This document shows positions 8,511-43,323 of a stretch of DNA of 64,000 nucleotides, in pieces (within the stretch, counting starts at the first letter, position 1; every line of letters begins with the position of its first letter). Below the pieces are notes generated by a model, which worked only from the letters and a program-made list of their open reading frames with translations, was not told the origin of the DNA and did no database searches. Source of the DNA: a bacterium. GTDB lineage: Bacteria; Patescibacteriota; Minisyncoccia; Phycocordibacterales; Phycocordibacteraceae. Made by a program: the position numbers and the translations under genes. The stretch is from NCBI GenBank assembly GCA_021849125.1, contig JAJZTG010000002.1, positions 76,573 through 140,572 of the forward strand. Direction: 5' to 3'.

Positions 8511-8538
8511 GTTATTACAGTAGACATACACATTCCAT

Positions 8539-9903: not shown

Positions 9904-9925
9904 GCAGTAGAGTGCTAGATAAAAA

Positions 9926-9961
9926 CGCGCGCCGAGGCTTTGCCTCGGCGCGCGTTTTTGG
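9926..9961 (+). terminator. rho-independent terminator after nusA
   Basis: CGCGCGCCGAGGC-TTTG-CCTCGGCGCGCG followed by TTTTTG. Confidence 0.75.
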
Positions 9962-9975
9962 TATTCTCTACCCAT

Positions 9976-10675: not shown

Positions 10676-10688
10676 TCTGTAACGTATT

Positions 10689-11294: not shown

Positions 11295-11326
11295 CAAGCA
11301 TAATTGCCACAGCAGGAAAATAAAAA

Positions 11327-11360
11327 CCGGTGAGCATATGCTCACCGGTTGGCTTTTGCC
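11327..11360 (+). terminator. rho-independent terminator after clpP
   Basis: CCGGTGAGCATATGCTCACCGG followed by TTGGCTTTTG. Confidence 0.7.
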
Positions 11361-11367
11361 GGTACGT

Positions 11368-12111
11368 TTAAATGAAAACGGCGGCATCGTACGGGTGCGA
11401 GGATAAATCGTCGTAATCGGCGATGACATCTTTCCCGTCGACCACTTTGTAGGAGCAAATACGTCTCCCGTATGCAGAATGGCCACTAATACCTGGAACG
11501 TAGTAGCACCAGTCGTTCTTGCATATCGTTCCCCAGAAGAGCACGATGCCGAAGAAGTGTCCGGGGATGTGGTGCGGATTCTTCAAATAGAAATCACGCA
11601 GCGCGATGCCAGGCAACATCTTACCGAGCAAATATTTCGGCAGCAGATGCCTTTTGCTGAGGTTAAGCAACTCATCATCATCGGGGACATCGATGTGAGT
11701 GTTCGGTTTCGTCCGAGGCCGGCCATTTTCAGCATCGTGTTCATACGAACGCGATGCCGAGTATGAAGCAATTCCAAGGGTAAATTCACCAAGAATGAGA
11801 TGATGTGGAATACGTTTGTTCCCGTAGCGAGTACGGTTAAGTACCACCTCCCCTTTGTTGCCCCTCATATCGTCCCTATCCCCCGGTTTCACTAGATTGG
11901 GGCAAATAATCCGCTTCACAGGAACGACTTCAGCATCTCCTCGAAGCACGTCGAGCATCGGCCCGAGAACCCGGGATTTGCCGTCTTTCGTTGTTAACTC
12001 GTTTAGGTGACTGTCGTCCCAGGAACGGCTGGTTCCAAACTGAGCCTCGCTGTTACCAAGGGCTTCTGCGAGCGTATGGGCAAGCCCAACACCTTTCATA
12101 ACTTGTGACAT
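11368..12111 (-). CDS. hypothetical protein (orphan gene on the opposite strand)
   Basis: 247-aa ORF with no family recognised (HHIPGHFFGIVLFWG and a C-terminal Cys/Tyr-rich region). It sits between the clpP terminator and the rny promoter region. Confidence 0.5.
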   Translation of the reverse strand: MSQVMKGVGLAHTLAEALGNSEAQFGTSRSWDDSHLNELTTKDGKSRVLGPMLDVLRGDAEVVPVKRIICPNLVKPGDRDDMRGNKGEVVLNRTRYGNKRIPHHLILGEFTLGIASYSASRSYEHDAENGRPRTKPNTHIDVPDDDELLNLSKRHLLPKYLLGKMLPGIALRDFYLKNPHHIPGHFFGIVLFWGTICKNDWCYYVPGISGHSAYGRRICSYKVVDGKDVIADYDDLSSHPYDAAVFI

Positions 12112-12280
12112 GACAAAGATCTCCTCTGGAATGCGACGATGTCTAAAATTCAGACGGTGTCGCCTGTGAGAGCCTCAAGACATTTGAGATACTCTAACGA
12201 TATCTATTTTACAATAATATACATAAATCACAAGGATGCTGCATCGTGAGTCTAACGCGAATGTGTGGTAGGCTCAGCCC

Positions 12281-13810
12281 ATGTCACTCAAGATCATCCT
12301 TATCCTTTTGGCCCTTTCCGGCATCGGCGGCGTCGCGCTCGGGTACGTCTTGCGTGTGCTTATCGGCCTCGCTCAGCGTGGCTCCGTCGAGCTCGATACC
12401 AAGCAGAAGCTTCTGCAAGCGAAGGAGCAAGCGGCCAAGATCATGGCGGATGCCGAGTACCGCAGCGCCGTCATTGAGACAGAACGCCTCGAAGATATCG
12501 AGGAGCGCGAGGATAAAGTCTCGCAGCGCGAAGAACGTGTCGCGACACGCGAGGAGTTCCTCGACGCGCGTCAGCATGACCTCGACGAGAAAGAGTCCGA
12601 TATCCGTGCGCGCGAACAGGAGGCAGCACGTCTGAAGAAAGAAGCTGAGGAGCTCGCACAGAAGCGCGCGAAGGCGCTCGAGACCGCGTCGCATCTCTCA
12701 AGCGATAAGGCCCGTGAAGAGCTTTTCGCAGAGATCGAAGAAGAGAACGAGAACGCGATCCTCCTGCGCCTCCAGAAGCTTGCGGCAAACGGCCAAGAGC
12801 GTCTCGAAGAGAAGGCGCGCGATATCTTGCTCTCGATCGTCCATCGTCTCGGCAACGCGGTGAATGCGGACGTGATGTCGCTCTCGGTCGTCCTCTCTTC
12901 TCCGGAAGTGAAAGGAAAGATCATCGGCAAAGAGGGCCGCAACATCAAGGCATTCGAGCGTGCTACGGGCGTCGATGTGCTCATCGACGATGTGCCAGAC
13001 CGCATCACCCTTTCTTCTTTCGATCCGCTTCGCCGTACGGTCGCGAAGATTTCGCTTGAAAAGCTCATTGCCGACGGGCGCATCCAGCCGGCGAAGATCG
13101 AGGAGATCGTCGAAAAGACGCAAGGAGAGGTCGCCGAGCTCATCAAGCAGAAGGGCGAAGAGGCTGCCTATGAGGCGGGCGTCGTCGGGCTCGACCCGAA
13201 ACTCATTGCCCTTCTCGGCCGCCTTCATTTCCGTACGAGCTTCGGCCAGAACACGCTCCAGCACTCGATCGAGATGGCGCACCTGGCGGGCATGCTCGCG
13301 ACCGAGCTTGATGCTGACGCAGGCGTTGCGCGCGCCGGCGCCCTGCTTCACGACATCGGCAAGGCGGTGGACCATGAGGTACAGGGTACGCACGTGGAGA
13401 TCGGCCGCCGCATTCTCGAGAAGTTCGGTGTCGACGAGCGTGTCATCAAAGCGATGCAGTCGCATCATGAGGAGTATACGTACGAGACGCCGGAGTCTGT
13501 CATCGTGCAGGTTGCGGATGCCCTTTCGGCCGGTCGCCCGGGCGCACGCCGCGACACGGTGGATCGCTATCTTGAGCGCTTGGGCGACCTCGAACGTCTC
13601 GCAGCTACCTTCGAAGGTGTCGAGAAGGCCTACGCGATCGCTGCAGGCCGTGAAATCCGCGTCTTCGTGAACCCGGGCAAGGTCTCGGACGTCGCGATGC
13701 ACAAGCTCGCGCGCGATATCGCCAAGCGCGTCCAGGATGAGCTCAAGTATCCGGGCGAGATCAAGGTGGACGTAATCCGCGAAAACCGCGTCGTCGAGTT
13801 CGCCCGATAG
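12281..13810 (+). CDS. rny: ribonuclease Y
   Basis: N-terminal TM helix, a coiled coil, a KH domain (KGKIIGKEGRNIKAFE) and an HD domain (LLHDIGKAVDHE). Confidence 0.9.
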   Translation: MSLKIILILLALSGIGGVALGYVLRVLIGLAQRGSVELDTKQKLLQAKEQAAKIMADAEYRSAVIETERLEDIEEREDKVSQREERVATREEFLDARQHDLDEKESDIRAREQEAARLKKEAEELAQKRAKALETASHLSSDKAREELFAEIEEENENAILLRLQKLAANGQERLEEKARDILLSIVHRLGNAVNADVMSLSVVLSSPEVKGKIIGKEGRNIKAFERATGVDVLIDDVPDRITLSSFDPLRRTVAKISLEKLIADGRIQPAKIEEIVEKTQGEVAELIKQKGEEAAYEAGVVGLDPKLIALLGRLHFRTSFGQNTLQHSIEMAHLAGMLATELDADAGVARAGALLHDIGKAVDHEVQGTHVEIGRRILEKFGVDERVIKAMQSHHEEYTYETPESVIVQVADALSAGRPGARRDTVDRYLERLGDLERLAATFEGVEKAYAIAAGREIRVFVNPGKVSDVAMHKLARDIAKRVQDELKYPGEIKVDVIRENRVVEFAR

Positions 13811-13928
13811 GATTTCACGCTATCCCCCGCGTTTGTACAGCCCTATTGCGCAATATGGCTCATTTCCTATACTTTATGGCATCCCGGCTCCTGCTTGTGG
13901 TGCCTGGTTTACCAGCTAGCAGAAACTC

Positions 13929-14201
13929 ATGAACAAAGCAGAAATTGTCGACAAGGTGCATGGCGTTCTCGGCTCGACCAAGGCCGACGCAGAGCGTGCA
14001 GTTGAAACCGTCATCGATTCGATCGTCTCCACGCTCGCTTCAGGTGATGAGGTCTCGATCGCAGGTCTCGGTATCTTCGCGACGAAAGCACGCCCGGCAC
14101 GCGAAGGTCGCAACCCGCGTACGGGTGAGACGATTCGTATTCCGGCAACGCGTACCGCGAAGTTTCGCCCCGCAAAGGCACTCAAGGACGCGGTCAAATA
14201 G
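13929..14201 (+). CDS. hup: DNA-binding protein HU
   Basis: 90 aa, MNKAEIVDKV...GFGTF-like arm region RNPRTGETIRIPATRTAKFRPAKALKDAV. Confidence 0.9.
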   Translation: MNKAEIVDKVHGVLGSTKADAERAVETVIDSIVSTLASGDEVSIAGLGIFATKARPAREGRNPRTGETIRIPATRTAKFRPAKALKDAVK

Positions 14202-22892: not shown

Positions 22893-23810
22893 CTATGTTC
22901 GTCGGGAGTGATATTTCTTGTGGATCTCGCGTAGGTGGGCATCGGTGACGTGAGTGTAGATCTGGGTAGTATTGATCGAGGCGTGGCCGAGGAGCTGCTG
23001 CACGGAGCGGATGTCGGCCCCGTTGCTCAGAAGATCGGTCGCGAAGGCGTGGCGCAGGGTGTGCGGAGTGACGATCGAGGTGATGCCGGCGCGCGCGACG
23101 TAGTTTTTCAGATGACGCTGCACATCGCGCGGTGTGATGCGATGCGGGTGTTTCGGGCGACCGTCGACGAAAAGCGCCTCCTCCATATCGTCGCGTGCTT
23201 TCAAGTAAGTACGGACCGCCTCCTTTGCGGCAGGGGAGAGGAAGACGACGCGGACCTTCTCGCCCTTTCCGCGCACCGAAAGCTCGTCACGGGAGAGGTC
23301 GAGGTCGCTGTTGAGCGAGCAGAGTTCGCTCACGCGAAGTCCGGTCGAGAAAAGCATCTCGAAGATCGCCGTGTCGCGTAGGTACGCGCGCTTTTTATGC
23401 GGATCGGTCTCTTTTGCAGCGGCCTCACGAGGTGCTTTCATGAGCCGGTCGAGCTCGGAGGAAGTGATGAGGTCGAGCTGGCGCTCAGGGAGCTTCGCAA
23501 GCTCGATCTTCTCGGGTGAGATAGCTGGCATATCGCGCTTCCGGAGAAACTTGAGGAACGCGCGCAGCGCGATCATGTAGTAATTCTGCGTGCGTCGCTT
23601 CATCGAGTCGCGGCCGGAGCCTGGTTGGCGGTTGAGCCAGAGACGGAACTCGCGGATGTTCTGCTCGGTGATGTCGCCAGTGGTTTTCACACCCATCTGT
23701 TCGAAGTAGCGGGAGAGATAGTGGTCGTAATTCTCGACGGTTTTGACCGCACGGCCGCGCTCGATCTCTATATATTCAAGAAATTGCCGTTTTGCCGCCT
23801 GGGCGTCCAT
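22893..23810 (-). CDS. xerC: tyrosine site-specific recombinase, Xer-type
   Basis: Catalytic residues R, HxxR and Y in ...TPHTLRHAFATDLLSNGADIRSVQQLLGHASINTTQIYTHV. Start chosen at MDAQAAKRQF (23810). Confidence 0.85.
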   Translation of the reverse strand: MDAQAAKRQFLEYIEIERGRAVKTVENYDHYLSRYFEQMGVKTTGDITEQNIREFRLWLNRQPGSGRDSMKRRTQNYYMIALRAFLKFLRKRDMPAISPEKIELAKLPERQLDLITSSELDRLMKAPREAAAKETDPHKKRAYLRDTAIFEMLFSTGLRVSELCSLNSDLDLSRDELSVRGKGEKVRVVFLSPAAKEAVRTYLKARDDMEEALFVDGRPKHPHRITPRDVQRHLKNYVARAGITSIVTPHTLRHAFATDLLSNGADIRSVQQLLGHASINTTQIYTHVTDAHLREIHKKYHSRRT

Positions 23811-23829
23811 ACGAAAATGGTAGCATGCG

Positions 23830-23861
23830 AAGTGCGCACAATATGACGTTGTTGCGCACAA
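23830..23861. promoter_or_regulatory. dif-like imperfect inverted repeat (candidate Xer recombination site or operator) immediately upstream of the xer gene
   Basis: AAGTGCGCACAA-TATGACG-TTGTTGCGCACAA. The adjacent region carries further GCGC-rich palindromes, including TTGCGCGCAAAACGCGCGCAAG. Confidence 0.35.
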
Positions 23862-24010
23862 ACGAATGCAAAGACGCGCTTGCGCGCAAAACGCGCGCAA
23901 GAACGTGCGAAATTGCGGACCATCCCGCACATTCTCGCCGAGAGGCTCCCGAGCTCGTTATTACGAAAGACTTGCGCTTTTTGGCAAGACGTGGTAGGGT
24001 AGGACTAATC

Positions 24011-29383: not shown

Positions 29384-30460
29384 TTATTGAGGGGAGCACA
29401 CGTTCCCGACCGAACAATTCCTGAACGGATTCGCCGCACCGCGGACCTCGAAGTGGAGGTGAGAACCGGTTGAGAGGCCGGTCGAGCCAGCATAGCCGAT
29501 AATCTGACCTGCTGATACTGACTGGCCTGAGGAGACGGACGTTTTCGTCATGTGCGAGTAGAGAGTCTGTGTGCCATTTCCGTGGGTGATAACGACATAG
29601 TTGCCGTAGCCGCCGTTCCATGCGCCATTGTTGCGAGCGAGTATCACTGTACCGGATGCTGCTGCGCGAATTGGCGTGCCGCGGGGCGCACCGAAATCGA
29701 CGGAGTTCCACCCGTGCAAGCCCTGCGTTATGGGAGCTCCTGGCAGAGGGTTACCATAGTAACCAGGCTGCGCTGCTCCGCCGCCACCCAAGTACGGTTC
29801 AGGACCAACCGCACGCTTAGACTTGGAGGAGGTGGATTTCTTCGCAACCGTAGGAGGTGGTGCGACGTCGCCTCCCGGAATGATGATCGATGAGTCGATG
29901 ACAAGCGGCTTTTCAGGGTCGAGACCGTTGTATTGCGCTATTTCCGTTGCATCACCATGATACTTGGCAGCGAGAGATTTGAGCGTATCGCCCTTTACGA
30001 CCTTATGCTCGACTCCTGAAATAGGGAGGATGACGAGCGTGTCTCCCGGATGAACGTCCGAAACACCCTTAAGGTCGTTTGCCCAGATGATGGTGTTTGC
30101 CGAGACTCCGAACATATCAGCAATCTCCGAAAGGGTGTCACCAGGGCGTACGACATAGACGGAAATGCGATCAGGAGGCGTCGAGCTCGCTACGTCAGCG
30201 ATCGTGCCCGAAGGGCCTGCGTACGCGAGCATCGCATTGCCGCTTAGCGGGATGTCAGCCCCGAGGCCCTTATTCGGGTTCGGATCGAAGTTTACGGCTG
30301 CGCGAAGGACCGGAGTCGAGACGTCGGGTGCTGCAAGGAGGCCAGCCGCGCTCGCGTCTGTCGAGAAAAACCAAAAAGCGTTTGCGCGGTTCGGAGCCCC
30401 AAGTGCCAAGATGGCGAGAACGGCAAATCCTAGTACGGAAAATTGAGCGATTGATTTAAT
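29384..30460 (-). CDS. secreted LysM-domain (two copies) M23 family metallopeptidase
   Basis: Two LysM repeats (YVVRPGDTLSEIA..., HKVVKGDTLKSLA...) and M23 motifs (HGWNSVDF, YGNYVVITHGNGTQTLYSHM, GSTGLSTGSHLHFEV). The first canonical start (TTG 30409) gives no signal peptide. An in-frame upstream stretch IKSIAQFSVLGFAVLAILALGAPNRANA is a textbook signal peptide, implying an ATT (30460) or CTG start. Confidence 0.75.
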   Translation of the reverse strand: MKSIAQFSVLGFAVLAILALGAPNRANAFWFFSTDASAAGLLAAPDVSTPVLRAAVNFDPNPNKGLGADIPLSGNAMLAYAGPSGTIADVASSTPPDRISVYVVRPGDTLSEIADMFGVSANTIIWANDLKGVSDVHPGDTLVILPISGVEHKVVKGDTLKSLAAKYHGDATEIAQYNGLDPEKPLVIDSSIIIPGGDVAPPPTVAKKSTSSKSKRAVGPEPYLGGGGAAQPGYYGNPLPGAPITQGLHGWNSVDFGAPRGTPIRAAASGTVILARNNGAWNGGYGNYVVITHGNGTQTLYSHMTKTSVSSGQSVSAGQIIGYAGSTGLSTGSHLHFEVRGAANPFRNCSVGNVCSPQ

Positions 30461-30638: not shown

Positions 30639-32555
30639 GTGAACTATCTCGATTCCTTAAATGACGCTCAGAAAGAGGCGGTCCTTGCTACAGAAGGACC
30701 GATTTCTGTCTTGGCGGGTGCCGGAAGCGGTAAGACACGCGTGCTTGCGACCCGTATCTACCATCTGATCCGTGAAGGGGCGCCGCCGGAGACGATCCTT
30801 GCGGTCACCTTTACCAATAAGGCGGCACGCGAGATGCGGGAGCGCGTACGCACGATGCTCGGAGACGATGCGTCCGTGCCATTTATCGCGACGTTCCACG
30901 GCCTCGGTCGAGAGATCCTTGAGCGGCACGGGTCGGTACTCGGCATCCCGCGCTATTTCAGCGTTTACGACCGTGATGATTCGGAGCGAGCGGTATCGGT
31001 GGCCCTCAAAGCACTCGATGTCTCGACCAAAGAGCTTTCACCGCGCGCGGTGCTCGGTCGCATCTCGCGCGCAAAGAACAGCGGCGTTCGCGCAAGCGAG
31101 TTTTATGAGAAGCAAGGGCGATCCGGTTTCGGTAACCGGATCGTGGCGGAGGTCTGGCTTCGTTATGAGAAGACCTTGAAAGAAGAGAAGGCGCTCGATT
31201 TCGACGATCTCATCGTGCTCCCGGTTAAGCTTCTCGAAGAGTATGCCGATATCCGAGCCGCGGCACAGGAGCGGTGGCGGTACCTTCACATCGATGAATA
31301 TCAGGACACGAGCGCGCTTCAGGGGCGCCTCACGAACCTTCTTGCGACGAAACACAAGAACCTGTTCGTGGTGGGCGATATCGATCAGACTATCTATACG
31401 TGGCGCGGCGCGACGATCGAGAACCTGCTTGAATTCGACAAGACGTATCCGGAAGCCCAGACGATCATCCTCGAGCGCAACTATCGTTCGACGAAGACGC
31501 TCGTCGATGCGGCAAACGCGGTCATCGAGAAGAACAAGAACCGTAAAGAGAAACGTTCGACCACGGAGCAGGGCGAAGGTGAGCCGATCAAGGTGCATGT
31601 CGCGCCAAATGCGGAATTCGAAGCACGCTACATCGCGAAGGAGATCCGAAGACTCATGCAAAACGGCGTGAAGCCAGAGGATGTCGCGGTCCTGTTCCGG
31701 ACAAACTTCCAATCACGCGCGCTCGAGGAAGGGCTTTTGCGAGAAGGGGTCCCGTACAAGCTGCTCGGTACGCGTTTCTTCGGACGCAAAGAAGTGAAAG
31801 ACATGCTCGCGTGGATGCGCCTCGCGATCGATCCGTCACGCGAAGCCGACAAGATGCGCGCGGTTGCGAGCCCGTCGCGCGGTATCGGCGCAGTCACGCT
31901 CGGCAAGCTTGCAGCGGGACAGCGTGAAGCGCTTCGTCCGTCTGACCTCGCGAAAGTCGAAGCGTTCGAGAAAGTCGTCACTGAACTTGCCTCGGCTTCC
32001 GAGACGCTCACGCCATCGGAGTTTGTCCGGCTCGTTGCCGAGAAAAGCGGCATGAAACGAGCCCTCGTCGACGAGGGCAGTGCCGAAGACCATGAGCGAT
32101 TCGAGAACATCGAAGAGCTCGCGTCGGTCGCAGCTCGGCATGATCATCTGCCGGGGAAGGAAGGCATCGCGCTCTTCTTGGCTGAAGCGGCGCTCGCAAG
32201 CGACCAGGACGAACTCGATCAGAATACGAAAAAAGGCGTGACACTCATGACCGTGCACGCGGCCAAGGGTCTCGAGTTCGATACCGTCTTCGTAACCGGT
32301 ATGGAAGAGGGTCTCTTTCCGCACAGCGACATGGGGGATGGCAAACGTGATGATGAGGAAGAGCGCCGCCTTTTCTATGTCGCGATCACGCGCGCTAAGC
32401 GCCGCTTGTATCTTACGCTTGCGCGCGTGCGCAAGATCTATGGTATCGACAGTTATGCCGAACCCTCTTCATTCCTTGCTGATATCGATGACGCGCTCGT
32501 GCTTTATGATGAAAGCTATGATCAGACCTATGATAAAGGATGGATCATCGAGTAA
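30639..32555 (+). CDS. pcrA: ATP-dependent DNA helicase, UvrD/PcrA family
   Basis: GAGSGKT Walker A and UvrD motifs (TFHGLGREIL, DEYQDT, VGDIDQTIY). 638 aa. Confidence 0.85.
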   Translation: MNYLDSLNDAQKEAVLATEGPISVLAGAGSGKTRVLATRIYHLIREGAPPETILAVTFTNKAAREMRERVRTMLGDDASVPFIATFHGLGREILERHGSVLGIPRYFSVYDRDDSERAVSVALKALDVSTKELSPRAVLGRISRAKNSGVRASEFYEKQGRSGFGNRIVAEVWLRYEKTLKEEKALDFDDLIVLPVKLLEEYADIRAAAQERWRYLHIDEYQDTSALQGRLTNLLATKHKNLFVVGDIDQTIYTWRGATIENLLEFDKTYPEAQTIILERNYRSTKTLVDAANAVIEKNKNRKEKRSTTEQGEGEPIKVHVAPNAEFEARYIAKEIRRLMQNGVKPEDVAVLFRTNFQSRALEEGLLREGVPYKLLGTRFFGRKEVKDMLAWMRLAIDPSREADKMRAVASPSRGIGAVTLGKLAAGQREALRPSDLAKVEAFEKVVTELASASETLTPSEFVRLVAEKSGMKRALVDEGSAEDHERFENIEELASVAARHDHLPGKEGIALFLAEAALASDQDELDQNTKKGVTLMTVHAAKGLEFDTVFVTGMEEGLFPHSDMGDGKRDDEEERRLFYVAITRAKRRLYLTLARVRKIYGIDSYAEPSSFLADIDDALVLYDESYDQTYDKGWIIE

Positions 32556-33315
32556 CCGACCGCGCGTCGTAGCGAAGAAATCACTCGGTCAGAATTTCCT
32601 CATGCATGCGCGCATCGCGGAGCGCATCGCGCTTACGGCGCCTATCACCAGAGAGTCGGTCGTACTTGAGATAGGTCCTGGTACGGGGATGCTCACCCGT
32701 GAGCTCTTGAAGAAGGCAAAGAAGGTCATCGCAGTCGAAGCTGATGACGAGCTTTTTGAGAAACTCAGGATCGATTTCGCCGAGACGATCGGAAAAGGGA
32801 GATTGGAACTCCATCACGGCGATGTCCGTACTTTTGACGCGGACAGTCTCCCAAAAGGTTATCTGCTTGTCGCGAACATCCCATACTACATTACCGGGGA
32901 AATATTCCGCATGTTTCTCGAGGCAAAGAATCAGCCGAGCACGATGGTGCTTCTCGTGCAGAAAGAGGTTGCAGAACGGATCGCTCGGTCGAAAAAAGAG
33001 AGCCTGCTCTCGCTCTCGGTGAAAGCCTACGGGACGCCGTCCTATGCGTTCACGGTGCCACGCGGAGCGTTTCATCCTGCGCCGAAGGTGGATTCGGCGG
33101 TCATTAAGGTGGAAGACATTTCACGCAAGAACTTTTCCTCTCAAGAAGAGGAAGACCGTTTCTTCAAGCTTATCCATGCCGGTTTCGCGCACAAGCGCAA
33201 GTTCGTGCGGAAAAACCTGACCGAGGCCGGACTTCGGGCGGGTGATTTGCCAGAAAAGGCGCGCGCGGAAGATCTTCCTCTCGCGACGTGGCTCGATCTT
33301 GCACGCATGCAGTGA
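32530..33315 (+). CDS. rsmA: 16S rRNA (adenine1518/1519-N6)-dimethyltransferase
   Basis: LGQNFL, EIGPGTG and NIPY motifs. The start overlaps the pcrA 3' end by 26 nt. Confidence 0.85.
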   Translation: MIKDGSSSNRPRVVAKKSLGQNFLMHARIAERIALTAPITRESVVLEIGPGTGMLTRELLKKAKKVIAVEADDELFEKLRIDFAETIGKGRLELHHGDVRTFDADSLPKGYLLVANIPYYITGEIFRMFLEAKNQPSTMVLLVQKEVAERIARSKKESLLSLSVKAYGTPSYAFTVPRGAFHPAPKVDSAVIKVEDISRKNFSSQEEEDRFFKLIHAGFAHKRKFVRKNLTEAGLRAGDLPEKARAEDLPLATWLDLARMQ

Positions 33316-33384
33316 GAATTGCACAGTTTGCAAGTAGACAAGGCGTCGTCCTCTAGGAGTATAGTGGTATACTAAAGAGCGAGT

Positions 33385-34422
33385 ATGAACAGCGTCTCTT
33401 CTTCGCAGTGGCGTATCTTAACTGCAGCCGGCGTCTCTACTGTGCTCATCATAGGTGCCTACTTTCTCGCTCGCGGATTCGGCGCGCCGGACGCAGCAAA
33501 AGCTTCTTCGGAAAGCGAACTCCTTCAGGCCATCGCCACCAAAGATACGGATAATGACGGACTTACCGATTGGGAGGAAGCTCTTTTTGGCACCGACCCG
33601 AAGGTGGTCGACACGTTCCATCTCGGGATGACCGATGGAGAAGCGGCAGCAAAAGGTCTCATCGTGCCCAAAGCGATCGCTGACGCCGGCACAGCGACTA
33701 CGACCCCGCGTGTCGCTATCGGCGACAGCTCTCTCCCAGCCCCCGTAGAGGGAACCCTCACGGCAGCTTTCGCAAAGAGTTTCTACACGCTTTATGTCGC
33801 TGCTAAGCAAGCAAAGGGCGGAGCCGACCTCACTCAAGACGAAATGTCAGGCGTTGCCAAGAAGGCGATAGCGAACCTCTCCGACTCCGTCAAAGCGGCT
33901 CCAAACTTTAAATCGGCGAGCGATCTCACTGTCTCGGGTTCTGGAGTTCAAGCGATGCTGACGTTTGCCGCAAGCGCCGAGGCGGTACTCCTTAAAAACA
34001 CGAATACCGCGACTAAGGGAGAGCTTGCGCTTCTCAAGGACGCGATCACCAATAATGACCAGTCCGCATACGAACAGCTCGCATCGCTTGCTAAGGGGTA
34101 TCGTGGTACAGCGGCAGGCCTCGCAGCGCTTCCTGTCCCGGAGGAGCTTGCTGCTACCGATCTCCTTCTCATAAACACGCTCATGCACATGGGCGAAATA
34201 ACCAGCGATTTCGTGCATACGGATACCGACCCGCTCGCGGCAATCCTTGCGCTTCAGCAATACGTTCAAACCGCACAGAATCTCGGCAAGGCCTTCATAG
34301 ATATCGGGCGCGTCTACGCTGCCTCCGGCATTTCGCTTCCAAACGGCACGCCAGGCGCTTTATTCGTGAACATGATCGCGGATATCGAGAGGGAGCAGGC
34401 TGCCGCGGCTAAGAAACCATGA
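33385..34422 (+). CDS. membrane-anchored protein of unknown function with a thrombospondin-type-3-like Ca-binding motif
   Basis: N-terminal TM helix followed by DTDNDGLTDWEEALFGTDP and an alpha-rich domain. First gene of a four-gene overlapping operon. Confidence 0.55.
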   Translation: MNSVSSSQWRILTAAGVSTVLIIGAYFLARGFGAPDAAKASSESELLQAIATKDTDNDGLTDWEEALFGTDPKVVDTFHLGMTDGEAAAKGLIVPKAIADAGTATTTPRVAIGDSSLPAPVEGTLTAAFAKSFYTLYVAAKQAKGGADLTQDEMSGVAKKAIANLSDSVKAAPNFKSASDLTVSGSGVQAMLTFAASAEAVLLKNTNTATKGELALLKDAITNNDQSAYEQLASLAKGYRGTAAGLAALPVPEELAATDLLLINTLMHMGEITSDFVHTDTDPLAAILALQQYVQTAQNLGKAFIDIGRVYAASGISLPNGTPGALFVNMIADIEREQAAAAKKP

Positions 34423-36335
34423 GCACCCGCCTATTATCATCTGGTATCGCTTCGCTCATCATCGCGGCACTTGTCGTGCCGGCGGTGTTTTTCATAGCTC
34501 CGCCGCAAGCACACGCGATCCCGGTCACGGTCGTTGGTGATATTTCTTTCCCGAGCTCCGTTACTACGGCTTTAAAGACCACCTATACGGCGATCAAAGA
34601 TACCCTTATCGAGATACATACTTACACCAGTGCGGCTGCAGATGTTGCACAATACATCAACACCTACGTGCTGGAGCCGCTTGCGTTTGTCATGTCGGGG
34701 CAGCTCATCAAGATGCTTACGGCAGCTGCCATCGGCTTTGTCATCGGCGAGGCGAACGGTACCGGCATACCCCAATTCATCACGGATGTGCATCGTTCGG
34801 TCCGGACTGTCGCTGACGGGCAAGCGCTTGCGTACCTCAAGCAGATAGGGCAGACAAACTCTCCGTTTGCGACGTCCATAGCGGCTTCACTTAATTCAGA
34901 CTACCTGAGCAAGACGAGTTTGGCCGGTTTCTGGAAGCAGAATCTCTGCACGCTCGAAGCAGCTTCTCCAGACGTAAATGCCTATCTCAGGGGAAATTGG
35001 ACGCAGGGTGGTATCGGCGCCTGGTTTACGCTCACGACGCAGGTCCAGAACGATCCGTACTCGCTTTACCTGCATACGCAAGAACAGCTTCATAATGTTG
35101 TCGGGCCGGGAGTGGGAGGCGCGACTGGTGCGAGGATTTCGGAACTCAATTGGGGTCAAGGATTCATGTCGTGGTGCGGCAATGCGCTTACGGAAGGATC
35201 TTCATGTAGCGATGTTAACGGTCGCGAGGGTACGATCAGCTCCGGAGGGGTATGTATCACGAGCGGCGCGGCAGCGGGGACCCAGTCCTGCAGCGACAAG
35301 TATGGAAATTTCGGCACAATCAATTCCGCAGGGCAATGCGTGGCGGACCCTTCATCCATCGTCGAAGGGTTTAATCCGGGAGATCCATGCACGCAAAGCG
35401 ACGGTACCCCGGGACAGATCAAGACGCCAGGTTCGACGATCAAGTCCACTTTGGACAAAGTGCTTGGTGGGCAGCAGGATCAGATCGTTCGTATGGGAAA
35501 CATCGGTCCTGAAATAAACGGCATACTTGGCGATATCGGAACCGTCTTCAATACGATCAATCTCGCATCTTCTCTCCTTGGAGGACATAATAGCCCAGGC
35601 GGTCTCCTCGGAGCGGGGAATATCTCCACGGGTCGGACGACATCGAGAATTACAGACTTGCAGACCTCGACCTCTACGCTCGGCATCACTACGCAGCAGA
35701 TCTACAAAGACAACAAGGACTCGATCGTGGTCAATGCTGATACCGACATGAAGACACGGGTGAACCTGTATAAATCAGCATGGACCACCATAATGTCGTC
35801 TGCCAATACTGCATCATCTAGTCTCACATCCCTCGCTTCTTTCTGCACGAAGGCGGCTGATGATGCGGCTCGTCTCCAGTATCAGAATAACTATGGCAGC
35901 ACCCCCACAGCCGCAGATATCGCTAAAGAGACTTCTCCGTTCATCACTGCCGCACGAGACCAGGCGAAGGAAGCTCAAAAAGTGATCTCCAGTGTCGTGG
36001 CGCCCGTTCTTGCGCAAGCGGCACTCGTCCCGGACATCATCGCCGCAGCGCTTGCTCAAGACGCGATCGTGCAAGACGAGCTTGCTACCGGTTCTACCAG
36101 CTATACGACCGATGCGGCGAAGCTCCGTACGATGTCGCCGACCTCTTCTGAAGTGGGTGATGCAGGATTTAACGCCACCAGGCTTGGAGCAGCTACGGCA
36201 GTTCCGGAGGGGTCCCTCTCGATCGCAGCCTCAGATTCAGTTCCTCTTGCCGATCAGATGAGCCTTCTGAGCACGAATGCAAGCGGATTGAAACAGACGG
36301 TGTGTACCCAAACAGCGAACAATAATGCTCCGTAG
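34419..36335 (+). CDS. large secreted protein of unknown function with tandem Cys-containing repeats
   Basis: Signal peptide ...APPQAHA/IPV. Repeats SCSDVNGREGTISSGGVCITSG and SCSDKYGNFGTINSAGQCVADP. ATGA overlap with the previous gene. Confidence 0.55.
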   Translation: MSTRLLSSGIASLIIAALVVPAVFFIAPPQAHAIPVTVVGDISFPSSVTTALKTTYTAIKDTLIEIHTYTSAAADVAQYINTYVLEPLAFVMSGQLIKMLTAAAIGFVIGEANGTGIPQFITDVHRSVRTVADGQALAYLKQIGQTNSPFATSIAASLNSDYLSKTSLAGFWKQNLCTLEAASPDVNAYLRGNWTQGGIGAWFTLTTQVQNDPYSLYLHTQEQLHNVVGPGVGGATGARISELNWGQGFMSWCGNALTEGSSCSDVNGREGTISSGGVCITSGAAAGTQSCSDKYGNFGTINSAGQCVADPSSIVEGFNPGDPCTQSDGTPGQIKTPGSTIKSTLDKVLGGQQDQIVRMGNIGPEINGILGDIGTVFNTINLASSLLGGHNSPGGLLGAGNISTGRTTSRITDLQTSTSTLGITTQQIYKDNKDSIVVNADTDMKTRVNLYKSAWTTIMSSANTASSSLTSLASFCTKAADDAARLQYQNNYGSTPTAADIAKETSPFITAARDQAKEAQKVISSVVAPVLAQAALVPDIIAAALAQDAIVQDELATGSTSYTTDAAKLRTMSPTSSEVGDAGFNATRLGAATAVPEGSLSIAASDSVPLADQMSLLSTNASGLKQTVCTQTANNNAP

Positions 36336-38490
36336 GCCTATGACGCGCTCTCTCCTCGCCGCGATTGCCGTCCCGATACTCTTTCTTGGCGCGGCTATCC
36401 TGACGCCGCAGGTCGTATGCGCTGCAAGCGCTTCTGATGTAGGGAAATCCTGTAGCAACGACGCGGGCGGCACGGGAACGTACAAGGACACCGGCGGAGG
36501 TAATATCCAGTGCGTCGTGACTAGCGACCCGGTTGCTGACCTTTCGCAACAGCCGGACGCACACACTCCCGACAATCCGACGGATTTCAAGAAGGATTCC
36601 GATTCGGTTTTCAATACGGTCATGATCAAGATCATGAGCCTCTTCGCATGGCTCGTCGGCGTTTCTGCGCTTACGCTCGATAATGCCGTGTACTACACCG
36701 TGGTCACGATGGGAGGTTACGTACACGAACTCGCAGCGGTCGGTGTCACCTGGCGGATCCTGCGCGACATCGGGAACATCCTGCTCATCTTCGGGTTCCT
36801 TGCGATAGGCATCTCGATCATCCTAAGCACCGAGCGGGTGGGTTTCGGGAAGAAGATGCTCCCAGGGCTCCTCATCGCGGCGGTCTTCATCAATTTCTCT
36901 CTCTTCATAACCGAAGCGGTCATCGACGCAGGGAATCTTTTCGCGACGCAATTCTACACGCAGATAAACGGCGGTAACCCGGCTTCACCGTCGAGTTTAG
37001 CCGGTTCGAATTCAATCGTCGATGTCGCTCGCACGGCGGGAAGTCAAGGCATCAGTAACAAGATCATGGCACAGCTCGGCCTCCAGACCATCTACGGGGA
37101 TGCGCTCGGTCAGAATACGCAGGTATTCAAGGGTGCTAACCCATTCCTCATAGGTTTTTTGGGCATCCTGCTCTTTCTTACGACCGCGTTCGTGATGTTT
37201 TCGCTCGCGTTCATCCTTATCGCGCGATTCGTAGCGCTCATCTTCATTATTATCTTGGCCCCGGTTGGCTTTGCCGGCCTCGCGATTCCTCAGTTGAAGA
37301 GTGTTGCGGGGAAGTGGTGGGGAGCCCTTTTCGAACAGACTCTTACCGCTCCGGTGCTCCTTCTCATGCTTTATGTGGCGCTCGCTGTTATTACCGATAA
37401 GCAGTTTCTGCCGGGTTTCGGACTCTCTGGTCCTGGGGCGGCAGGTGCCGCGACCGGGTTCGTAGATGGCGCGAATCTTGTCGCTTTCGGCAGCTTCATC
37501 CTTTCGTTCATCGTTGCGATGGGGCTTCTGCTTGCCGTGACGGTCTTTGCGAAGCAGCTCTCTGCGTTCGGGGCGGGTTGGGCGACGAAGGGTGCTAGCA
37601 TGGCGTCTTTCGGCGCGACAGCCTGGGGTGCCCGTCTTGTTGGAGGAGGTGTTGGCAGGGGCCTCAACAGCCGTTTGATGCGAGCACAAGCTTCAAAGAG
37701 CGGTGTCTTGGGTCTTGCTGCAAAAACGGCTGTATTTACCGGGCGTGGTATAGAGAATCGGACTTATGACGTTCGGAATCTGAAGACAGTGCAAGGTGTC
37801 CTGAGCGGCTCTGTGCTCGGCGTATCAACAGGGGTTGCCGCCGGATCATCCGTAACCGCGGGAGAGGCGGTTAAGAAGGCCGAAGAAGCAGCGAAGAAGT
37901 ACAAGCCGTTCTCGGGAGAATGGTGGCGCGACACACAAAAAGAATACGAGAAAGCAGCTAGCGAGCGTGAGAGGGAGAAAAAACTTGCATCGCCGGGTAC
38001 GCCTGATTTCAAGAAAGAACTGAATAAAATGTCTGAGGAAGAGCTTGCAGAACTCAAGGGTATTCGCCAAGGATTGGCCGATTTCGTTCATGTGCTTTCC
38101 CCTGCAAAATATGATTCCCTTTCCAAAAGCTCGAAGCTCCTTGCTGGTGAAAAAGACAAACTTGCGAAAACTTGGAATAGTCAGTTTGAGATTGATCCAA
38201 ATACGGGCGTTAATAATGCTGTGGCAACTATCGGGCGCTTTAGCACTGAAGAGGTCGCGGGGCTTAAAGGGGCTGTGCTTACTAAGCCAAACGTCGTTGC
38301 AGCGCTAGGGGTAAATGAATTCGAGAAGATTCGCAGCAAGGGCTCTCTCACGAAGGACGAACGTCGAGAAATCCGTAACCAAATGAATGCCGCTGCGCAA
38401 GCTAATCCAACCTACGCACAAGAAATTGCAGATTACTTCAATCCGGCAAATGACGTGGGTGAATCTCGCGATAAATACTGGAACGTATAA
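36325..38490 (+). CDS. polytopic membrane protein, TrbL/VirB6-like topology (putative), with a long coiled-coil C-terminal domain
   Basis: Signal peptide, Cys-containing ectodomain, about 6-7 TM helices with Gly-rich loops, and a 250-aa Lys/Glu-rich C-terminus. The family assignment is tentative. It overlaps the upstream gene by 11 nt. Confidence 0.5.
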   Translation: MLRRPMTRSLLAAIAVPILFLGAAILTPQVVCAASASDVGKSCSNDAGGTGTYKDTGGGNIQCVVTSDPVADLSQQPDAHTPDNPTDFKKDSDSVFNTVMIKIMSLFAWLVGVSALTLDNAVYYTVVTMGGYVHELAAVGVTWRILRDIGNILLIFGFLAIGISIILSTERVGFGKKMLPGLLIAAVFINFSLFITEAVIDAGNLFATQFYTQINGGNPASPSSLAGSNSIVDVARTAGSQGISNKIMAQLGLQTIYGDALGQNTQVFKGANPFLIGFLGILLFLTTAFVMFSLAFILIARFVALIFIIILAPVGFAGLAIPQLKSVAGKWWGALFEQTLTAPVLLLMLYVALAVITDKQFLPGFGLSGPGAAGAATGFVDGANLVAFGSFILSFIVAMGLLLAVTVFAKQLSAFGAGWATKGASMASFGATAWGARLVGGGVGRGLNSRLMRAQASKSGVLGLAAKTAVFTGRGIENRTYDVRNLKTVQGVLSGSVLGVSTGVAAGSSVTAGEAVKKAEEAAKKYKPFSGEWWRDTQKEYEKAASEREREKKLASPGTPDFKKELNKMSEEELAELKGIRQGLADFVHVLSPAKYDSLSKSSKLLAGEKDKLAKTWNSQFEIDPNTGVNNAVATIGRFSTEEVAGLKGAVLTKPNVVAALGVNEFEKIRSKGSLTKDERREIRNQMNAAAQANPTYAQEIADYFNPANDVGESRDKYWNV

Positions 38491-38503
38491 TAAAATTTGA
38501 CCC

Positions 38504-39277
38504 ATGAAAGATCTTTCTCTAGAGGAGGCAGGACGTTGGATGGATGCGGCACCCAAGATGGTGCAGGATGCAGTCACGAACCCTGTAACTCAACAGGTGC
38601 TAAGTGAGATCAGTGGGCGATATGCGCTCCATATCGATGTAAGCGGACTGCTTGAGAAGCTCACGAGCTATACGCTTATAGGCTATATCGGCCCGCAAGA
38701 TTTCTTCAGGGAGTTGCAAGCCTCTGGAGTTTCCGAGAAGGAAGCTCGAGAGATCATGGATGAGATTAATAAGAAGATTTTCATGCCGCTACGCGATGCG
38801 GAACGAAAGGAGGCGCCGGAGGCTATGACGCCGGCTCCTGCGCCCAAGCCTGTTTCCGCTCCGCGTCCTGCCGTCCCAAGCACTCCATCCTCGCTTCCTC
38901 CGCGTGCGGTTTTGCCTACGCGCCCAGTGATTAACCTACTTGAGGATCATGAGGAGCCAAGCATCCATTTTCCTCCGCTTCCTTCAGTAATACCCCAGGT
39001 AGCAGCACCCGCGCCCGTGTCTGCGCTCGCTCAGGCATCTATCCCGCGATCTGAGGCGATAGTGCAGCCCCAGAACCTCCCAGGCTCATTCCCACCTGTT
39101 CCCGTACCCGAAACGGCCACTTCTCACGAACCGGTAGCACCAGCTCCTGCCCCAGCACCAGCTCCGCTTACGCCGGCAAAGCCTGTGGTTGCCCAACCTG
39201 TGGTTCCGTCGGTGCCGCCCATTACTTCCTATTCGGTCGATCCATACCGCGAGCCGATCGACGAGAAGAACGGCTAG
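38504..39277 (+). CDS. hypothetical protein with a Pro/Ala-rich C-terminal half
   Basis: Last gene of the operon. The N-terminal globular domain is followed by PAPAPKPVSAPRPAVP...PAPAPAPAP. Confidence 0.5.
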   Translation: MKDLSLEEAGRWMDAAPKMVQDAVTNPVTQQVLSEISGRYALHIDVSGLLEKLTSYTLIGYIGPQDFFRELQASGVSEKEAREIMDEINKKIFMPLRDAERKEAPEAMTPAPAPKPVSAPRPAVPSTPSSLPPRAVLPTRPVINLLEDHEEPSIHFPPLPSVIPQVAAPAPVSALAQASIPRSEAIVQPQNLPGSFPPVPVPETATSHEPVAPAPAPAPAPLTPAKPVVAQPVVPSVPPITSYSVDPYREPIDEKNG

Positions 39278-39431
39278 CCTATATAGGCCAGAGTTGCGTT
39301 AATTAGCGTCTTCCTTTATAGTTCTTCCTGACCCTCTCGGGTCTTCTTTTACTGCCAAGCGATTCCGAGGAAAGGCGAAACTAACGTTTCGCCTTTCCGA
39401 GGAGAGCGCAGGGAGAAAACCCATTTACTAC

Positions 39432-39842
39432 ATGGCAACCATCAACCAGCTTACGAAGAAAGGGCGCAAGACTCGCACGTCGAAGACGAAAGTGCCTGCG
39501 CTTGCCCGCGGCTTTAACGCGCTCAAGAACCGCCCGACTTCGTACGCTTCGCCTTTCAAGCGTGGTGTTTGCACGAAGGTGACCACGAAGACCCCTCGCA
39601 AGCCGAACTCGGCTATCCGTAAGATCGCTCGCGTACGCCTCACTAACGGCATGGAAGTGACCGCCTACATCCCAGGCGAGACTCATAACCTTCAGGAACA
39701 CTCGGTGGTGCTTCTGCGCGGCGGCCGTGTGAAGGACATCGGCGTACAGTACACGATCGTGCGCGGCAAGCTCGATGCTTCGGGCCTCGAGAAGCGCCGC
39801 ACCGCTCGCTCGCGCTACGGTTCCAAGAAGCCGAAGGCATAA
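39432..39842 (+). CDS. rpsL: 30S ribosomal protein S12
   Basis: [13 protein letters not shown]...PKKPNSALRK-like sequence, highly conserved. Confidence 0.95.
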
Positions 39843-39863
39843 TTATTTCCGTAATATTCACTC

Positions 39864-40328
39864 ATGCGTCGACCTCTTAAAAAGCAGCGAACCTGGCGTC
39901 CGGACCTCAAGTACGGATCGGAGACGCTTACGCGTTTCATCAATGCCGTCATGTGGAGCGGCAAGAAGGATATCGCACGCGGTATCGTCTACGATGCGCT
40001 CGCAAAGATCGAGACAGAAGGGAAGGATCCGCTTGAGACCTTCGAGGCAGCGCTCCGCAATGCCTCGCCCTTGATGGAAGTGCGTTCCCGCCGCGTCGGC
40101 GGTGCCAACTACCAGGTTCCGCGCGAAGTCCCGCAGAACCGCCGTCTCGCGCTCTCGTTCCGCTGGATTATCAACGCTGCCCGCAACAAGAAGGGTAAGC
40201 CGATGGCTGAGAAGCTCGCGACCGAGCTCTTGCTCGCCGCAAACAACGAAGGCGACGCAGTGAAGAAGAAGGAGGATGTCCACCGCATGGCCGACTCCAA
40301 CAAGGCCTTCGCCCACTTCGCGTGGTAA
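39864..40328 (+). CDS. rpsG: 30S ribosomal protein S7
   Basis: Conserved S7 sequence ([18 protein letters not shown]...). Confidence 0.95.
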
Positions 40329-40350
40329 TCGCTACGAACTGAAAGCAAAA

Positions 40351-40378
40351 AAGCCCCGCATTGCGGGGCTTTTGTTTA
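40351..40378. terminator. bidirectional terminator after rpsG
   Basis: AAAAAA-GCCCCGC-ATT-GCGGGGC-TTTTGTTT. Confidence 0.7.
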
Positions 40379-40384
40379 GGCGAT

Positions 40385-40738
40385 TTAGTGAGGACGTCTC
40401 GACAATAGGTCTGCCAGCTGCATGAGCGGCTGGACGTAAGGTCCTTTCGCTCTGTCGGAAGGTGAAAAGTTCATATCGTCCTCGATAGGCAATGGTAGCC
40501 AACGGTTTGACCTCCGTTTCTCTAGAACGAAGGCGGTCCCAAAAAGATCATGTAAATACGAAAGCTCGGTTTCCGGCAATTTCTCCAAATCCTGCTTGCT
40601 CATCGAAATGAGCCGCTCCGCTTCAGCAGATGCTTCGCTCAAAAGATCTTCGGGTTTCTTGAATCTCTTTTGCATCCTTCGGATTGACTCGATTCCGACG
40701 AGCGTAAAAGCGTCACGAATCTTAGATTTAGGAGGCAT
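40385..40738 (-). CDS. hypothetical small protein (117 aa) in a low-GC islet between rpsG and fusA
   Basis: RBS GGAG sits about 8 nt upstream of the ATG at 40738. Local GC is clearly lower than in the neighbouring genes. No family assigned. Confidence 0.45.
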   Translation of the reverse strand: MPPKSKIRDAFTLVGIESIRRMQKRFKKPEDLLSEASAEAERLISMSKQDLEKLPETELSYLHDLFGTAFVLEKRRSNRWLPLPIEDDMNFSPSDRAKGPYVQPLMQLADLLSRRPH

Positions 40739-40794
40739 CGTTGTTCTCCAAGGTTGTTGGTCTGTAATATATGATACAACTAAAATAATAAAAT

Positions 40795-40828
40795 GCAAAA
40801 ATTGAGAACCCGCCGTATGGCGGGTTCG
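40795..40828 (-). terminator. rho-independent terminator for the small gene at 40830-41036
   Basis: Minus strand reads GAACCCGCC-ATAC-GGCGGGTTC followed by TCAATTTTTGCATTTT, immediately after the stop codon. Confidence 0.55.
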
Positions 40829-40829
40829 G

Positions 40830-41036
40830 TTAGAGGGTTTTGCAGTGGGCGCTTTCGGCGACAGAAAGCGCCTCACCATACTCGGTGTAGCCTTGGTCGA
40901 CCGCAGCGCGGAGGACCGAGACCGCCTGAGTGAGGGTCCCATGAGAAAGAGCGACAACCGGGTCGACTCCGTTAAGTAGGTTAGAAAAGTGGTCAGCCTG
41001 CACAATGAGGGGGTCCTCAAACGCTTCGGTATGCAT
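40830..41036 (-). CDS. hypothetical small protein (68 aa)
   Basis: RBS GGGAGA sits 6 nt upstream of the ATG at 41036, and a dedicated terminator follows. Sequence MHTEAFEDPLIVQADHFSNLLNGVDPVVALSH... has no recognised family. Confidence 0.4.
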   Translation of the reverse strand: MHTEAFEDPLIVQADHFSNLLNGVDPVVALSHGTLTQAVSVLRAAVDQGYTEYGEALSVAESAHCKTL

Positions 41037-41166
41037 GGTATGTCTCCCGGGTGGCAACTGTTCCTATCGCAGGATACCGGCTGCAGGCACTCTTTGCAAT
41101 TCTCGGAAGTTGGGCTATGCTTCGGATAACGCTTCGGCGGGCTTTTTATTTCTTTATCCTTCTCTC

Positions 41167-43323
<2,157 letters not shown>

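Follow-up and report, generated by a model that had tools for sequence, protein, structure and literature searches.

A conserved four-gene operon encoding a VirB6/TrbL-like membrane protein between rsmA and the str operon in Patescibacteria

Gene order and conservation of the operon

We analyzed a 64,000-nucleotide stretch of the contig JAJZTG010000002.1 (positions 76,573 to 140,572; GenBank assembly GCA_021849125.1), called the window below, in which four plus-strand open reading frames (ORFs) at positions 33385–39277 form an operon of unnamed genes. We labelled the ORFs O1 through O4 in gene order. O1 (33385–34422; 345 amino acids, aa) is predicted to carry a single N-terminal membrane anchor, the rest being extracytoplasmic, Ala-rich, helical and free of Cys. 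O2 (34419–36335; 638 aa) is a putative secreted protein and a candidate analogue of VirB5/TrbJ. O3 (36325–38490; 721 aa, or 716 aa with a start at 36340) is a predicted polytopic membrane protein of an extended VirB6/TrbL type, and O4 (38504–39277; 257 aa) is a predicted cytoplasmic protein.

A first-pass annotation, made from the letters of the window without database searches, had described a tightly coupled four-gene operon, and the conservation of the gene junctions over about 70 genomes bears this out. O1 and O2 share the ATGA overlap that it had reported, and of 71 related loci nearly all keep this −4 spacing. For O2 and O3 it had given an 11-nt overlap, which holds with the ATG at 36325 but not with the ATG at 36340, the start used by NCBI, where the genes are separated by a 4-nt gap. 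The latter ATG corresponds in the alignment to a Met that at least 90% of 118 homologues share, and the junction is probably the gap rather than the overlap. The coupling is tight with either start. O3 and O4 are 13 nt apart in the window. Over the related loci, the median spacing was −4 nt for O2/O3 and +9 nt for O3/O4.

The operon lies where the annotation had placed it, between rsmA and the str operon: RsmA (PF00398) is encoded upstream, across a gap of 69 nt, and S12, S7 and EF-G (rpsL, rpsG and fusA) are encoded downstream. Further upstream are a gene for UvrD and then, on the minus strand, one for a LysM-M23 peptidase. The G+C content (GC) of the operon is 0.545–0.568, and the window mean is about 0.56. 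Between O4 and rpsL, a consensus scan found a terminator-like hairpin with a T-run on the plus strand (39330–39353, the hairpin itself at 39330–39343); it is a pattern match only, and likely marks the 3′ end of the operon. A simple scan detected no sigma-70-like promoter, and window positions 32000–41000 contained no Rfam family.

A protein set identical to that of the window is on record for the metagenome-assembled genome (MAG) GCA_027321305.1. The homologues are labelled Paceibacteria/Kaiserbacteria, which belong to the Candidate Phyla Radiation (CPR) or Patescibacteria, in agreement with the earlier suggestion of a CPR-like organism. When one genome was scanned for each GTDB species, 80 loci with a relative of O3 were obtained, and we read their synteny by tblastn of the window proteins. 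The order M23 (minus strand)–UvrD–RsmA–O1–O2–O3–O4–S12–S7 recurred in about 80 species-level genomes, far beyond chance. The co-occurrence of the four genes in relatives, which had been proposed as a check, was seen wherever the contig was long enough. By tblastn, O3 was detected in 81 loci, O2 in 75, O1 in 72 and O4 in 63. In its 72 of the 81 loci, O1 was always immediately upstream of O2. The interval between O3 and rpsL was ORF-sized (about 940 nt) even where O4 was too diverged for tblastn, and an ORF of the size of O4 was present there in essentially all loci. The four genes are vertically inherited as one operon; their translation is coupled, and about 80 species have inherited them together.

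The four operon proteins change far more rapidly than the housekeeping proteins encoded beside them: the median identity was 55% for O1, 38% for O2, 48% for O3 and 30% for O4, compared with 72% for RsmA, 75% for UvrD and 88% for S12. No relatives were found in viral-contig and plasmid collections, and none of the four window proteins matched the phage and defense families of PHROGs and PADLOC. The operon is a core-genome locus of a lineage of ultra-small CPR bacteria and not a mobile element. When the four window proteins were scanned with Pfam and NCBIfam, nothing was matched except a TSP3 loop in O1. Sequence searches of the PDB returned coiled-coil noise only, whether the query was a single protein or the profile of any of the four families. 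Comparison of the families with each other by hhalign (O4 with O3, O1 with O2) detected no internal homology.

The four proteins and their covariation

For O3, the first-pass annotation had noted an architecture reminiscent of TrbL/VirB6, and both its orthologues and its predicted fold point the same way. The Pfam family TrbL (PF04610) matched 6 of 28 O3 homologues (best E-value 1.9e-7), and TrbL_4 matched 2 of the 28. Precomputed matches to PF04610 and PF19590 are also on record among the homologues. Two Pfam-positive proteins, P0019 and P0113, are 50–54% identical to O3 and are encoded in the identical rsmA…rpsL synteny; they are therefore orthologues of O3. Orthologues also showed weak matches to VirB6-like families of the monoderm mobilome in NCBIfam (CD3337/EF1877, E 0.005; Mbov_0396, E 0.0011). 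A profile search of O3 against 1.84 billion cluster representatives gave 4676 matches at E ≤ 1e-30 and 10339 at E ≤ 1e-10; the 150 matches listed were all in-family and included no outgroup loci.

An AlphaFold2 model of O3, built with 118 sequences, had a mean predicted local distance difference test (pLDDT) of 79, with 80–90 in the membrane core. In a Foldseek search of the PDB with this model, ranks 1–5, 7 and 9 were chains of the entries for the TrwJ/VirB5–TrwI/VirB6 stalk of plasmid R388 (8RT9, 8RTD and 7O3V). The chains at ranks 1–5, which have the length of TrwI/VirB6, were matched with a probability of 0.92–1.0, E 0.05–0.16, a target template-modelling (TM) score of 0.35–0.45 and an identity of 16–18%. 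The region of O3 aligned with TrwI/VirB6 was the transmembrane core. Judged from these matches of sequence and predicted fold, O3 is a divergent, extended member of the TrbL/VirB6 superfamily.

The anatomy of O3 was largely as first described, with a Cys-containing ectodomain and about seven transmembrane helices. A putative signal peptide (aa 1–34, with an AxA site) is followed by a hypervariable extracytoplasmic segment (36427–36609, aa 35–95) that has 3 Cys, a column conservation of 0.21 and a pLDDT below 50. The stretch before an LFAWL motif measured 6–127 aa among the homologues. The conserved core (36610–37569, aa 96–415; conservation 0.72–0.80) contains about seven transmembrane helices, as judged by hydropathy and AlphaFold. 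The model places its helices at aa 92–127, 137–166, 174–214, 272–318, 322–356 and 385–412 (pLDDT 80–90). The cytoplasmic tail (37570–38487), which had been described as a long Lys/Glu coiled coil, instead appears to consist of Gly-rich, Lys/Arg-rich amphipathic helices (aa 416–530) and a compact, folded, all-helical domain (aa 531–721) with a pLDDT above 93 (93–97 over aa 550–720). The tail had no sequence or fold match in the PDB. In the model, with the Lys/Arg-rich segment after the last transmembrane helix, the N-terminus would be outside and the C-terminus in the cytoplasm. This anatomy agrees with what the literature on type IV secretion systems (T4SS) calls an "extended VirB6" (PMC12857230).

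About 200 homologues of O2 were found, all of them unnamed CPR proteins, and the orthologues were 520–930 aa long. O2 carries a Sec signal (aa 1–33) ending in AHA, an AxA site, followed by a long, partly hydrophobic N-terminal helix. Conserved blocks (aa 71–255 and 317–400) flank a hypervariable insert (35178–35375) with two tandem C-x15-C repeats (aa 263–279 and 291–307), bracketed by the conserved Cys253 and Cys324. A long helical bundle (35736–36308, aa 440–630) is predicted very confidently at the C-terminus. The secretion signal and the tandem Cys repeats of the earlier description are thus present, while the repeats belong to a lineage-variable insert and are not a feature of the family. 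Column conservation was 0.19 in the insert and 0.75 in its flanks. Over 112 homologues, the insert was 16–84 aa long and its number of Cys was always even (0, 2 or 4). The even counts argue for disulfides and, hence, for an extracytoplasmic location. By its signal and its paired Cys, O2 is assigned to the outside of the membrane as a secreted and, by this argument, disulfide-bonded protein.

Several features of O2 recall VirB5/TrbJ. In 12 of 114 homologues, the mature protein starts, right after the AxA site, with D-[IV]-V-F-D-P-T-N, comparable to QGIPVFDGT of TrwJ in R388. In the window, the mature sequence after the signal (IPVTVVGD) kept only "IPV" of this motif. The NCBIfam TrbJ family NF010448 matched two orthologues (E 2.2e-6 and 1.2e-5), N-terminally only and far under its 225-bit cut-off; DUF4141 matched 2 of 37 orthologues (2.2e-7) and PF07996 matched 1 of 37 (0.022). 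Window O2 itself matched no VirB5/TrbJ family in Pfam or NCBIfam. The O2 gene is directly upstream of the VirB6-like gene, as trwJ precedes trwI in R388 with the small eex gene between them. Fold searches with the O2 model were non-specific, and the match to TraC (1R8I) was no better than matches to generic bundles. We infer from the motif, the family matches of orthologues and the gene position that O2 may be the functional counterpart of VirB5/TrbJ.

O1 was expected to be an anchored protein with a DxDxDGxxDxxE calcium-binding loop, and both parts were recovered. Its single transmembrane anchor is a hydrophobic segment at aa 10–29 (33412–33471), and this signal anchor assigns the rest of the protein to the extracytoplasmic side. 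The loop DTDNDGLTDWEE (aa 54–65), which fits DxDxDGxxDxxE, lies within a TSP3-type calcium-binding match (33544–33600) to the Pfam family TSP3_bac (PF18884; 25.7 bits with a cut-off of 25, E 1.1e-5). The same family matched 29 of 46 orthologues, and the loop residues D54, D58, G59, D62 and W63 were invariant. O1 had no PDB sequence match, and the part outside the TSP3 loop had no known relatives.

O4 has 17.5% Pro and lacks a signal peptide and a transmembrane helix; it is probably a cytoplasmic protein with conserved short motifs rather than a secreted or membrane spacer. An alignment of 46 orthologues showed a conserved N-terminal helical domain (aa 1–105) and a disordered, Pro-rich linker of variable length. 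The linker contains the motifs LLEDHEEPxIxF (38936–38971) and NLPG (39074–39088), and an invariant Y-x-DPYREP (39230–39259) is at the C-terminus. O4 had no match in Pfam or the PDB, and a profile search with its N-terminal domain returned 34 short fragments only and no other architecture. O4 is best read as a cytoplasmic adaptor; possibly, it is a substrate with a C-terminal signal.

We examined rate covariation among the proteins by partial Mantel tests on pairwise protein distances from 33 genomes with all the genes, after removal of the distance component of UvrD, RsmA and M23. Covariation was clear for O1–O2 (r 0.58, 0 of 2000 permutations) and O3–O4 (r 0.54, 0 of 2000), and weak for O2–O3 (r 0.24, 22 of 2000). 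The other operon pairs, and rsmA with its neighbor O1, showed no significant covariation. This pattern fits a chain in which O1 and O2 might interact outside, O2 and O3 at the membrane, and the O3 tail and O4 inside.

Relation to type IV secretion systems and competing explanations

Chromosomal T4SS of Patescibacteria have been described as MPF-FATA-like (mating-pair-formation type FATA), with VirB2-like pilins and no relaxase (PMC10633639, PMC12102498). In Southlakia this system is essential, and VirB6 homologues belong to it (PMC10633639, PMC12102498); in Southlakia epibionticum it is encoded by SEML1_0006-0019 (Quinonero-Coronel et al. 2025, PMC12102498; Wang et al. 2023, PMC10633639). The operon studied here resembles these systems in phylum, in its chromosomal location and in having no relaxase. 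It differs in that virB4 is usually nearby in those systems but not within ±10 kb of the operon in any of the 80 genomes. Of 480 VirB6 homologues detected, 304 were near virB4 (PMC12102498), and in the available part of Table S3 of that study patescibacterial VirB6 is usually 2–4 genes from VirB3–TrsD–VirB4. The clusters of that study lie within 20 coding sequences of virB4 and have VirB3/PrgI, TrsD and VirB2-like pilins; the operon lacks this company, and the component lists do not include O1, O2 or O4. In some other classes, ksgA/rsmA is often near virB4 (PMC12102498), and a position next to rsmA therefore fits a cluster that was split. In that study, VirB5 homologues are reported only for one Gram-negative-type cluster (PMC12102498).

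Among the better-studied systems, O3 shares with VirB6/TrbL (PF04610; TrwI of R388) a polytopic membrane plan with the N-terminus outside and the C-terminus inside, and an upstream gene for a secreted protein with a TrbJ/VirB5-like N-terminus, comparable to trwJ–eex–trwI. O3 has 721 aa compared with 342 aa in TrwI, to which it adds a cleaved signal peptide, the hypervariable ectodomain and a folded tail of 300 aa. Unlike VirB6 of R388, it is not linked to virB2–B4 or virB8–B11, its window sequence is under all curated hidden Markov model thresholds, and its host is monoderm. O2 has in common with VirB5/TrbJ (TrwJ; TraC of pKM101, PDB 1R8I) a Sec signal, long helices including a predicted bundle, a gene upstream of virB6 and, in some orthologues, the mature start [IV]-x-V-F-D-x-T. 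It differs in size (638 aa compared with about 220 aa; 226 aa in TrwJ), well outside the small size of that family, and in having a large conserved middle and a disulfide-bracketed hypervariable insert.

The Gram-positive VirB6-like proteins (PrgH/TcpH/ConG; CD3337/EF1877, Mbov_0396) come from monoderms and show weak profile similarity to O3 orthologues, at E 1e-3 to 5e-3 only. We take the PrgH/TcpH/ConG type to have, like O3, a long cytoplasmic C-terminal region behind a multi-transmembrane core. These proteins are presumably encoded on mobile elements beside VirB4 and a coupling protein, unlike O3. In the rvh T4SS of Rickettsiales, extended VirB6 proteins have large extra hydrophilic domains and the genes are scattered over the chromosome (PMC2653234, PMC7648143). 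The operon would likewise be a case of dispersed T4SS genes in a reduced-genome, host-dependent bacterium. Rickettsiales differ in being diderm, in having tandem VirB6 copies and in lacking VirB5, whereas the operon has one copy per genome, a VirB5-like neighbor and, by description, other domains.

The explanation that we favor, at about even confidence, is that the operon is a detached platform or stalk module, based on VirB6, of the patescibacterial T4SS, encoded apart from the VirB4 genes. O2 would sit on an O3 oligomer on the outside of the membrane, in the manner of TrwJ on TrwI in R388, and would expose its disulfide-stapled hypervariable loop to the host or the environment, with O1 tethering or chaperoning O2 at the membrane. 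Inside, the short conserved motifs of O4 would attach it to the cytoplasmic domain of O3, where it might connect the platform with substrates or with a VirB4/TrsD/VirB3 motor, their genes lying elsewhere in the genome. The purpose of the assembled machine would be contact or transfer between epibiont and host, possibly along with nucleation of the VirB2-like pili known from the phylum, rather than conjugation. We infer such a host-interaction or conduit function for the operon, as the first-pass annotation had tentatively proposed.

In the available part of Table S1 of PMC12102498, VirB4 is present in four of five study genomes that carry the operon (L031, L032, L049 and L059; it is listed as absent for L073) and in most of the Kaiserbacteria rows. 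This suggests that the T4SS motor of operon-bearing genomes is probably encoded elsewhere in the genome. No VirB11-type ATPase was found in the window or in 10 kb beyond either end. The only secretion-type ATPase in the window is PilB of a type IV pilus (5209–6957), and the earlier statement that no secretion ATPase accompanies the four genes therefore stands. In 1.46 Mb of related loci, a tblastn search of limited sensitivity with VirB4, the coupling protein (T4CP), VirB3, VirB2 and VirB8 of R388 gave no match.

Several observations weigh against a T4SS module. VirB4, T4CP, VirB3, TrsD and VirB2 were absent from the window and the 10 kb past either end (about 84 kb, the part of this MAG that could be read), and no such genes were within ±10 kb of the operon in any of the 80 genomes. 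Window O3 had no Pfam or NCBIfam match even at E ≤ 1, and its fold match to TrwI is modest in both E-value and TM score. The link of O2 to VirB5 is a short N-terminal motif in about 10% of the orthologues, in a protein three times as large as VirB5. For O1 and O4, the proposed roles come from location and covariation only, and the covariation of rates may reflect linkage or shared exposure instead of contact. The profiles of O3 and O2 gave no signal by hhalign against the single R388 sequences of TrwI and TrwJ; for O3, we treated this result as one of low power because the homology with VirB6 is supported by other tests.

The lack of linkage to a T4SS ATPase in the 80 genomes could also be explained if the operon encoded an exapted, VirB4-independent surface complex, such as an adhesin, conduit or envelope structure, with the O2 loop contacting the host and O4 anchoring cytoplasmic partners. 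We consider this, the main rival, somewhat unlikely. It would suit a core-genome locus among housekeeping genes, the hypervariable exposed segments of O2 and of the O3 ectodomain, the lack of any T4SS family assignment past threshold for O1, O2 and O4, and the one operon-bearing genome listed without VirB4 in the part of Table S1 available, a MAG that may be incomplete. We know of no VirB6 protein that works without VirB4, which counts against this alternative, as does the TrbJ-like N-terminus of O2, a sign that T4SS logic was kept. Moreover, most Kaiserbacteria genomes in the available rows encode VirB4, and in Rickettsiales scattered T4SS genes still form one machine (mentioned in PMC12102498). 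The position between rsmA and the str operon, in synteny with UvrD and the LysM-M23 peptidase, the GC typical of the window and a curated family match limited to the TSP3 loop might instead indicate an envelope or housekeeping role unrelated to secretion, for example in membrane homeostasis or in the organization of the wall or division site, O3 then sharing only a distant ancestral fold with VirB6. Such a role appears quite improbable, given that the operon proteins have a median identity of 30–55% where their neighbors have 72–88%, and that hypervariable exposed regions are typical of surface-interaction proteins and not of core biogenesis factors. The O3 orthologues that pass Pfam TrbL and the fold search pointing specifically to VirB6 also speak against it, and none of the four proteins matched a housekeeping family, the kind of match that the first-pass annotation had named as contrary evidence.

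Conjugation is the usual context of genes for TrbL/VirB6 and TrbJ-like proteins, and the O3 orthologues weakly resemble membrane proteins of integrative and conjugative elements (ICEs), as might be expected if a decayed ICE had left behind a VirB5/VirB6 pair with cargo genes of no current function. Decay is difficult to reconcile with intact ORFs, conserved translational coupling and a core column conservation of 0.72–0.80. There is no integrase, relaxase or coupling protein adjacent to the operon. Its same position and order in about 80 species-level genomes, its normal GC and its lack of plasmid or viral relatives effectively refute a mobile-element or phage origin and make an ICE remnant extremely improbable.

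A bolder form of the T4SS reading would make the Kaiserbacteria-type O2 the first VirB5-like protein in a monoderm T4SS lineage, expanded three-fold and equipped with a disulfide-stapled host-recognition loop. It would be paired with an extended VirB6 in a free-standing core-genome stalk operon, with O1 outside and O4 inside, that either nucleates VirB2-like pili or acts as a VirB4-independent contact conduit. We regard this combination as unlikely.

T4SS and VirB6 in CPR bacteria have already been published (PMC10633639, PMC12102498), and the novelty of the operon is therefore lower. What is new is the split arrangement, the partners O1, O2 and O4, and a possible monoderm analogue of VirB5. 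Few machineries have been shown to be essential to Patescibacteria living as epibionts. The T4SS is one of them, and both its membrane channel and the parts in contact with the host are poorly defined. Published reports call VirB6 scarce or "extremely divergent" in several patescibacterial classes, and VirB5 has essentially not been found, while VirB2-like pilins are abundant. The operon is a concrete candidate for the missing platform in a large groundwater and soil lineage, at a fixed and recognizable position. Annotation centered on virB4 neighborhoods would miss modules of this type. If the link to VirB4 is true, the operon would provide testable targets as host-range determinants; if it is false, the operon would be a rare VirB6-based complex that works without a T4SS motor.

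Neighboring genes and related records

The PilB gene mentioned above belongs to a type IV pilus gene group at 901–6957. This group contains a pilin-like protein with an N_methyl motif (901–1680), two small unknown ORFs (one at 1677–2231) and a 587-aa protein without a family match (2228–3991), followed on the minus strand by PilC/T2SSF (3993–5204) and PilB/T2SSE (5209–6957). The minus-strand gene at 22893–23930, 9.5 kb upstream of the operon, encodes a probably XerC/D-like tyrosine recombinase, matched as Phage_integrase and bearing a SAM-like domain at its N-terminus. Nothing in its surroundings pointed to a mobile element.

The LysM-M23 protein (LysM plus Peptidase_M23; 29384–30409, minus strand) is a putative wall hydrolase whose synteny was kept in 52 loci. 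Enzymes of the LysM/M23 type have been discussed as substitutes for VirB1 in patescibacterial T4SS (PMC12102498). This gene is on the other strand, with UvrD and RsmA in between; therefore, we drew no link between it and the operon.

Downstream, between rpsG and the fusA region, the longest-ORF list gives a 211-aa minus-strand ORF (40385–41057) and a 772-aa fusA (41005–43323). In the same interval, NCBI has an EF-G of 718 aa and, on the minus strand, two short genes of 117 and 68 aa. The mechanical ORFs therefore over-extend there.

About 20 related genomes have a minus-strand gene of about 330–385 aa (up to 613 aa) between rsmA and O1, which is absent from the window. By eye, its product is putatively secreted, with a motif at the N-terminus that resembles peptidoglycan-binding sequences and with Cys in the C-terminal domain. 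Loci with this insertion include L003, L006, L010, L019, L023, L028, L030, L033, L034, L036, L041, L042, L050, L052, L060, L061 and L063.

The assembly GCA_027321305.1 divides the window between the contigs DAHVJR010000004.1 and DAHVJR010000001.1. A 152,789-bp contig with O3 and O2 is on record at NCBI and ENA, and a separate 26-kb ENA contig corresponds to the left part of the window. With about 1–14000 and 26000–64000 of the window on different contigs in those records, the window itself seems to derive from an assembly of the same organism that is more contiguous.

Many records with the Kaiserbacteria-type synteny are titled "uncultured Candidatus Saccharibacteria bacterium" (L015, L022–L025, L028, L035, L038, L051–L053, L056, L066, L069, L072 and L077), and one is titled "Victivallales" (L081). 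These titles look like mislabels or mis-binned contigs. The MAG JAJYQV01 (isolate DS4.bin61) has two copies of the rsmA–O1–O2–O3 region on separate contigs (L016 and L071), which is more likely to come from a mixed bin of two strains than from a true duplication.

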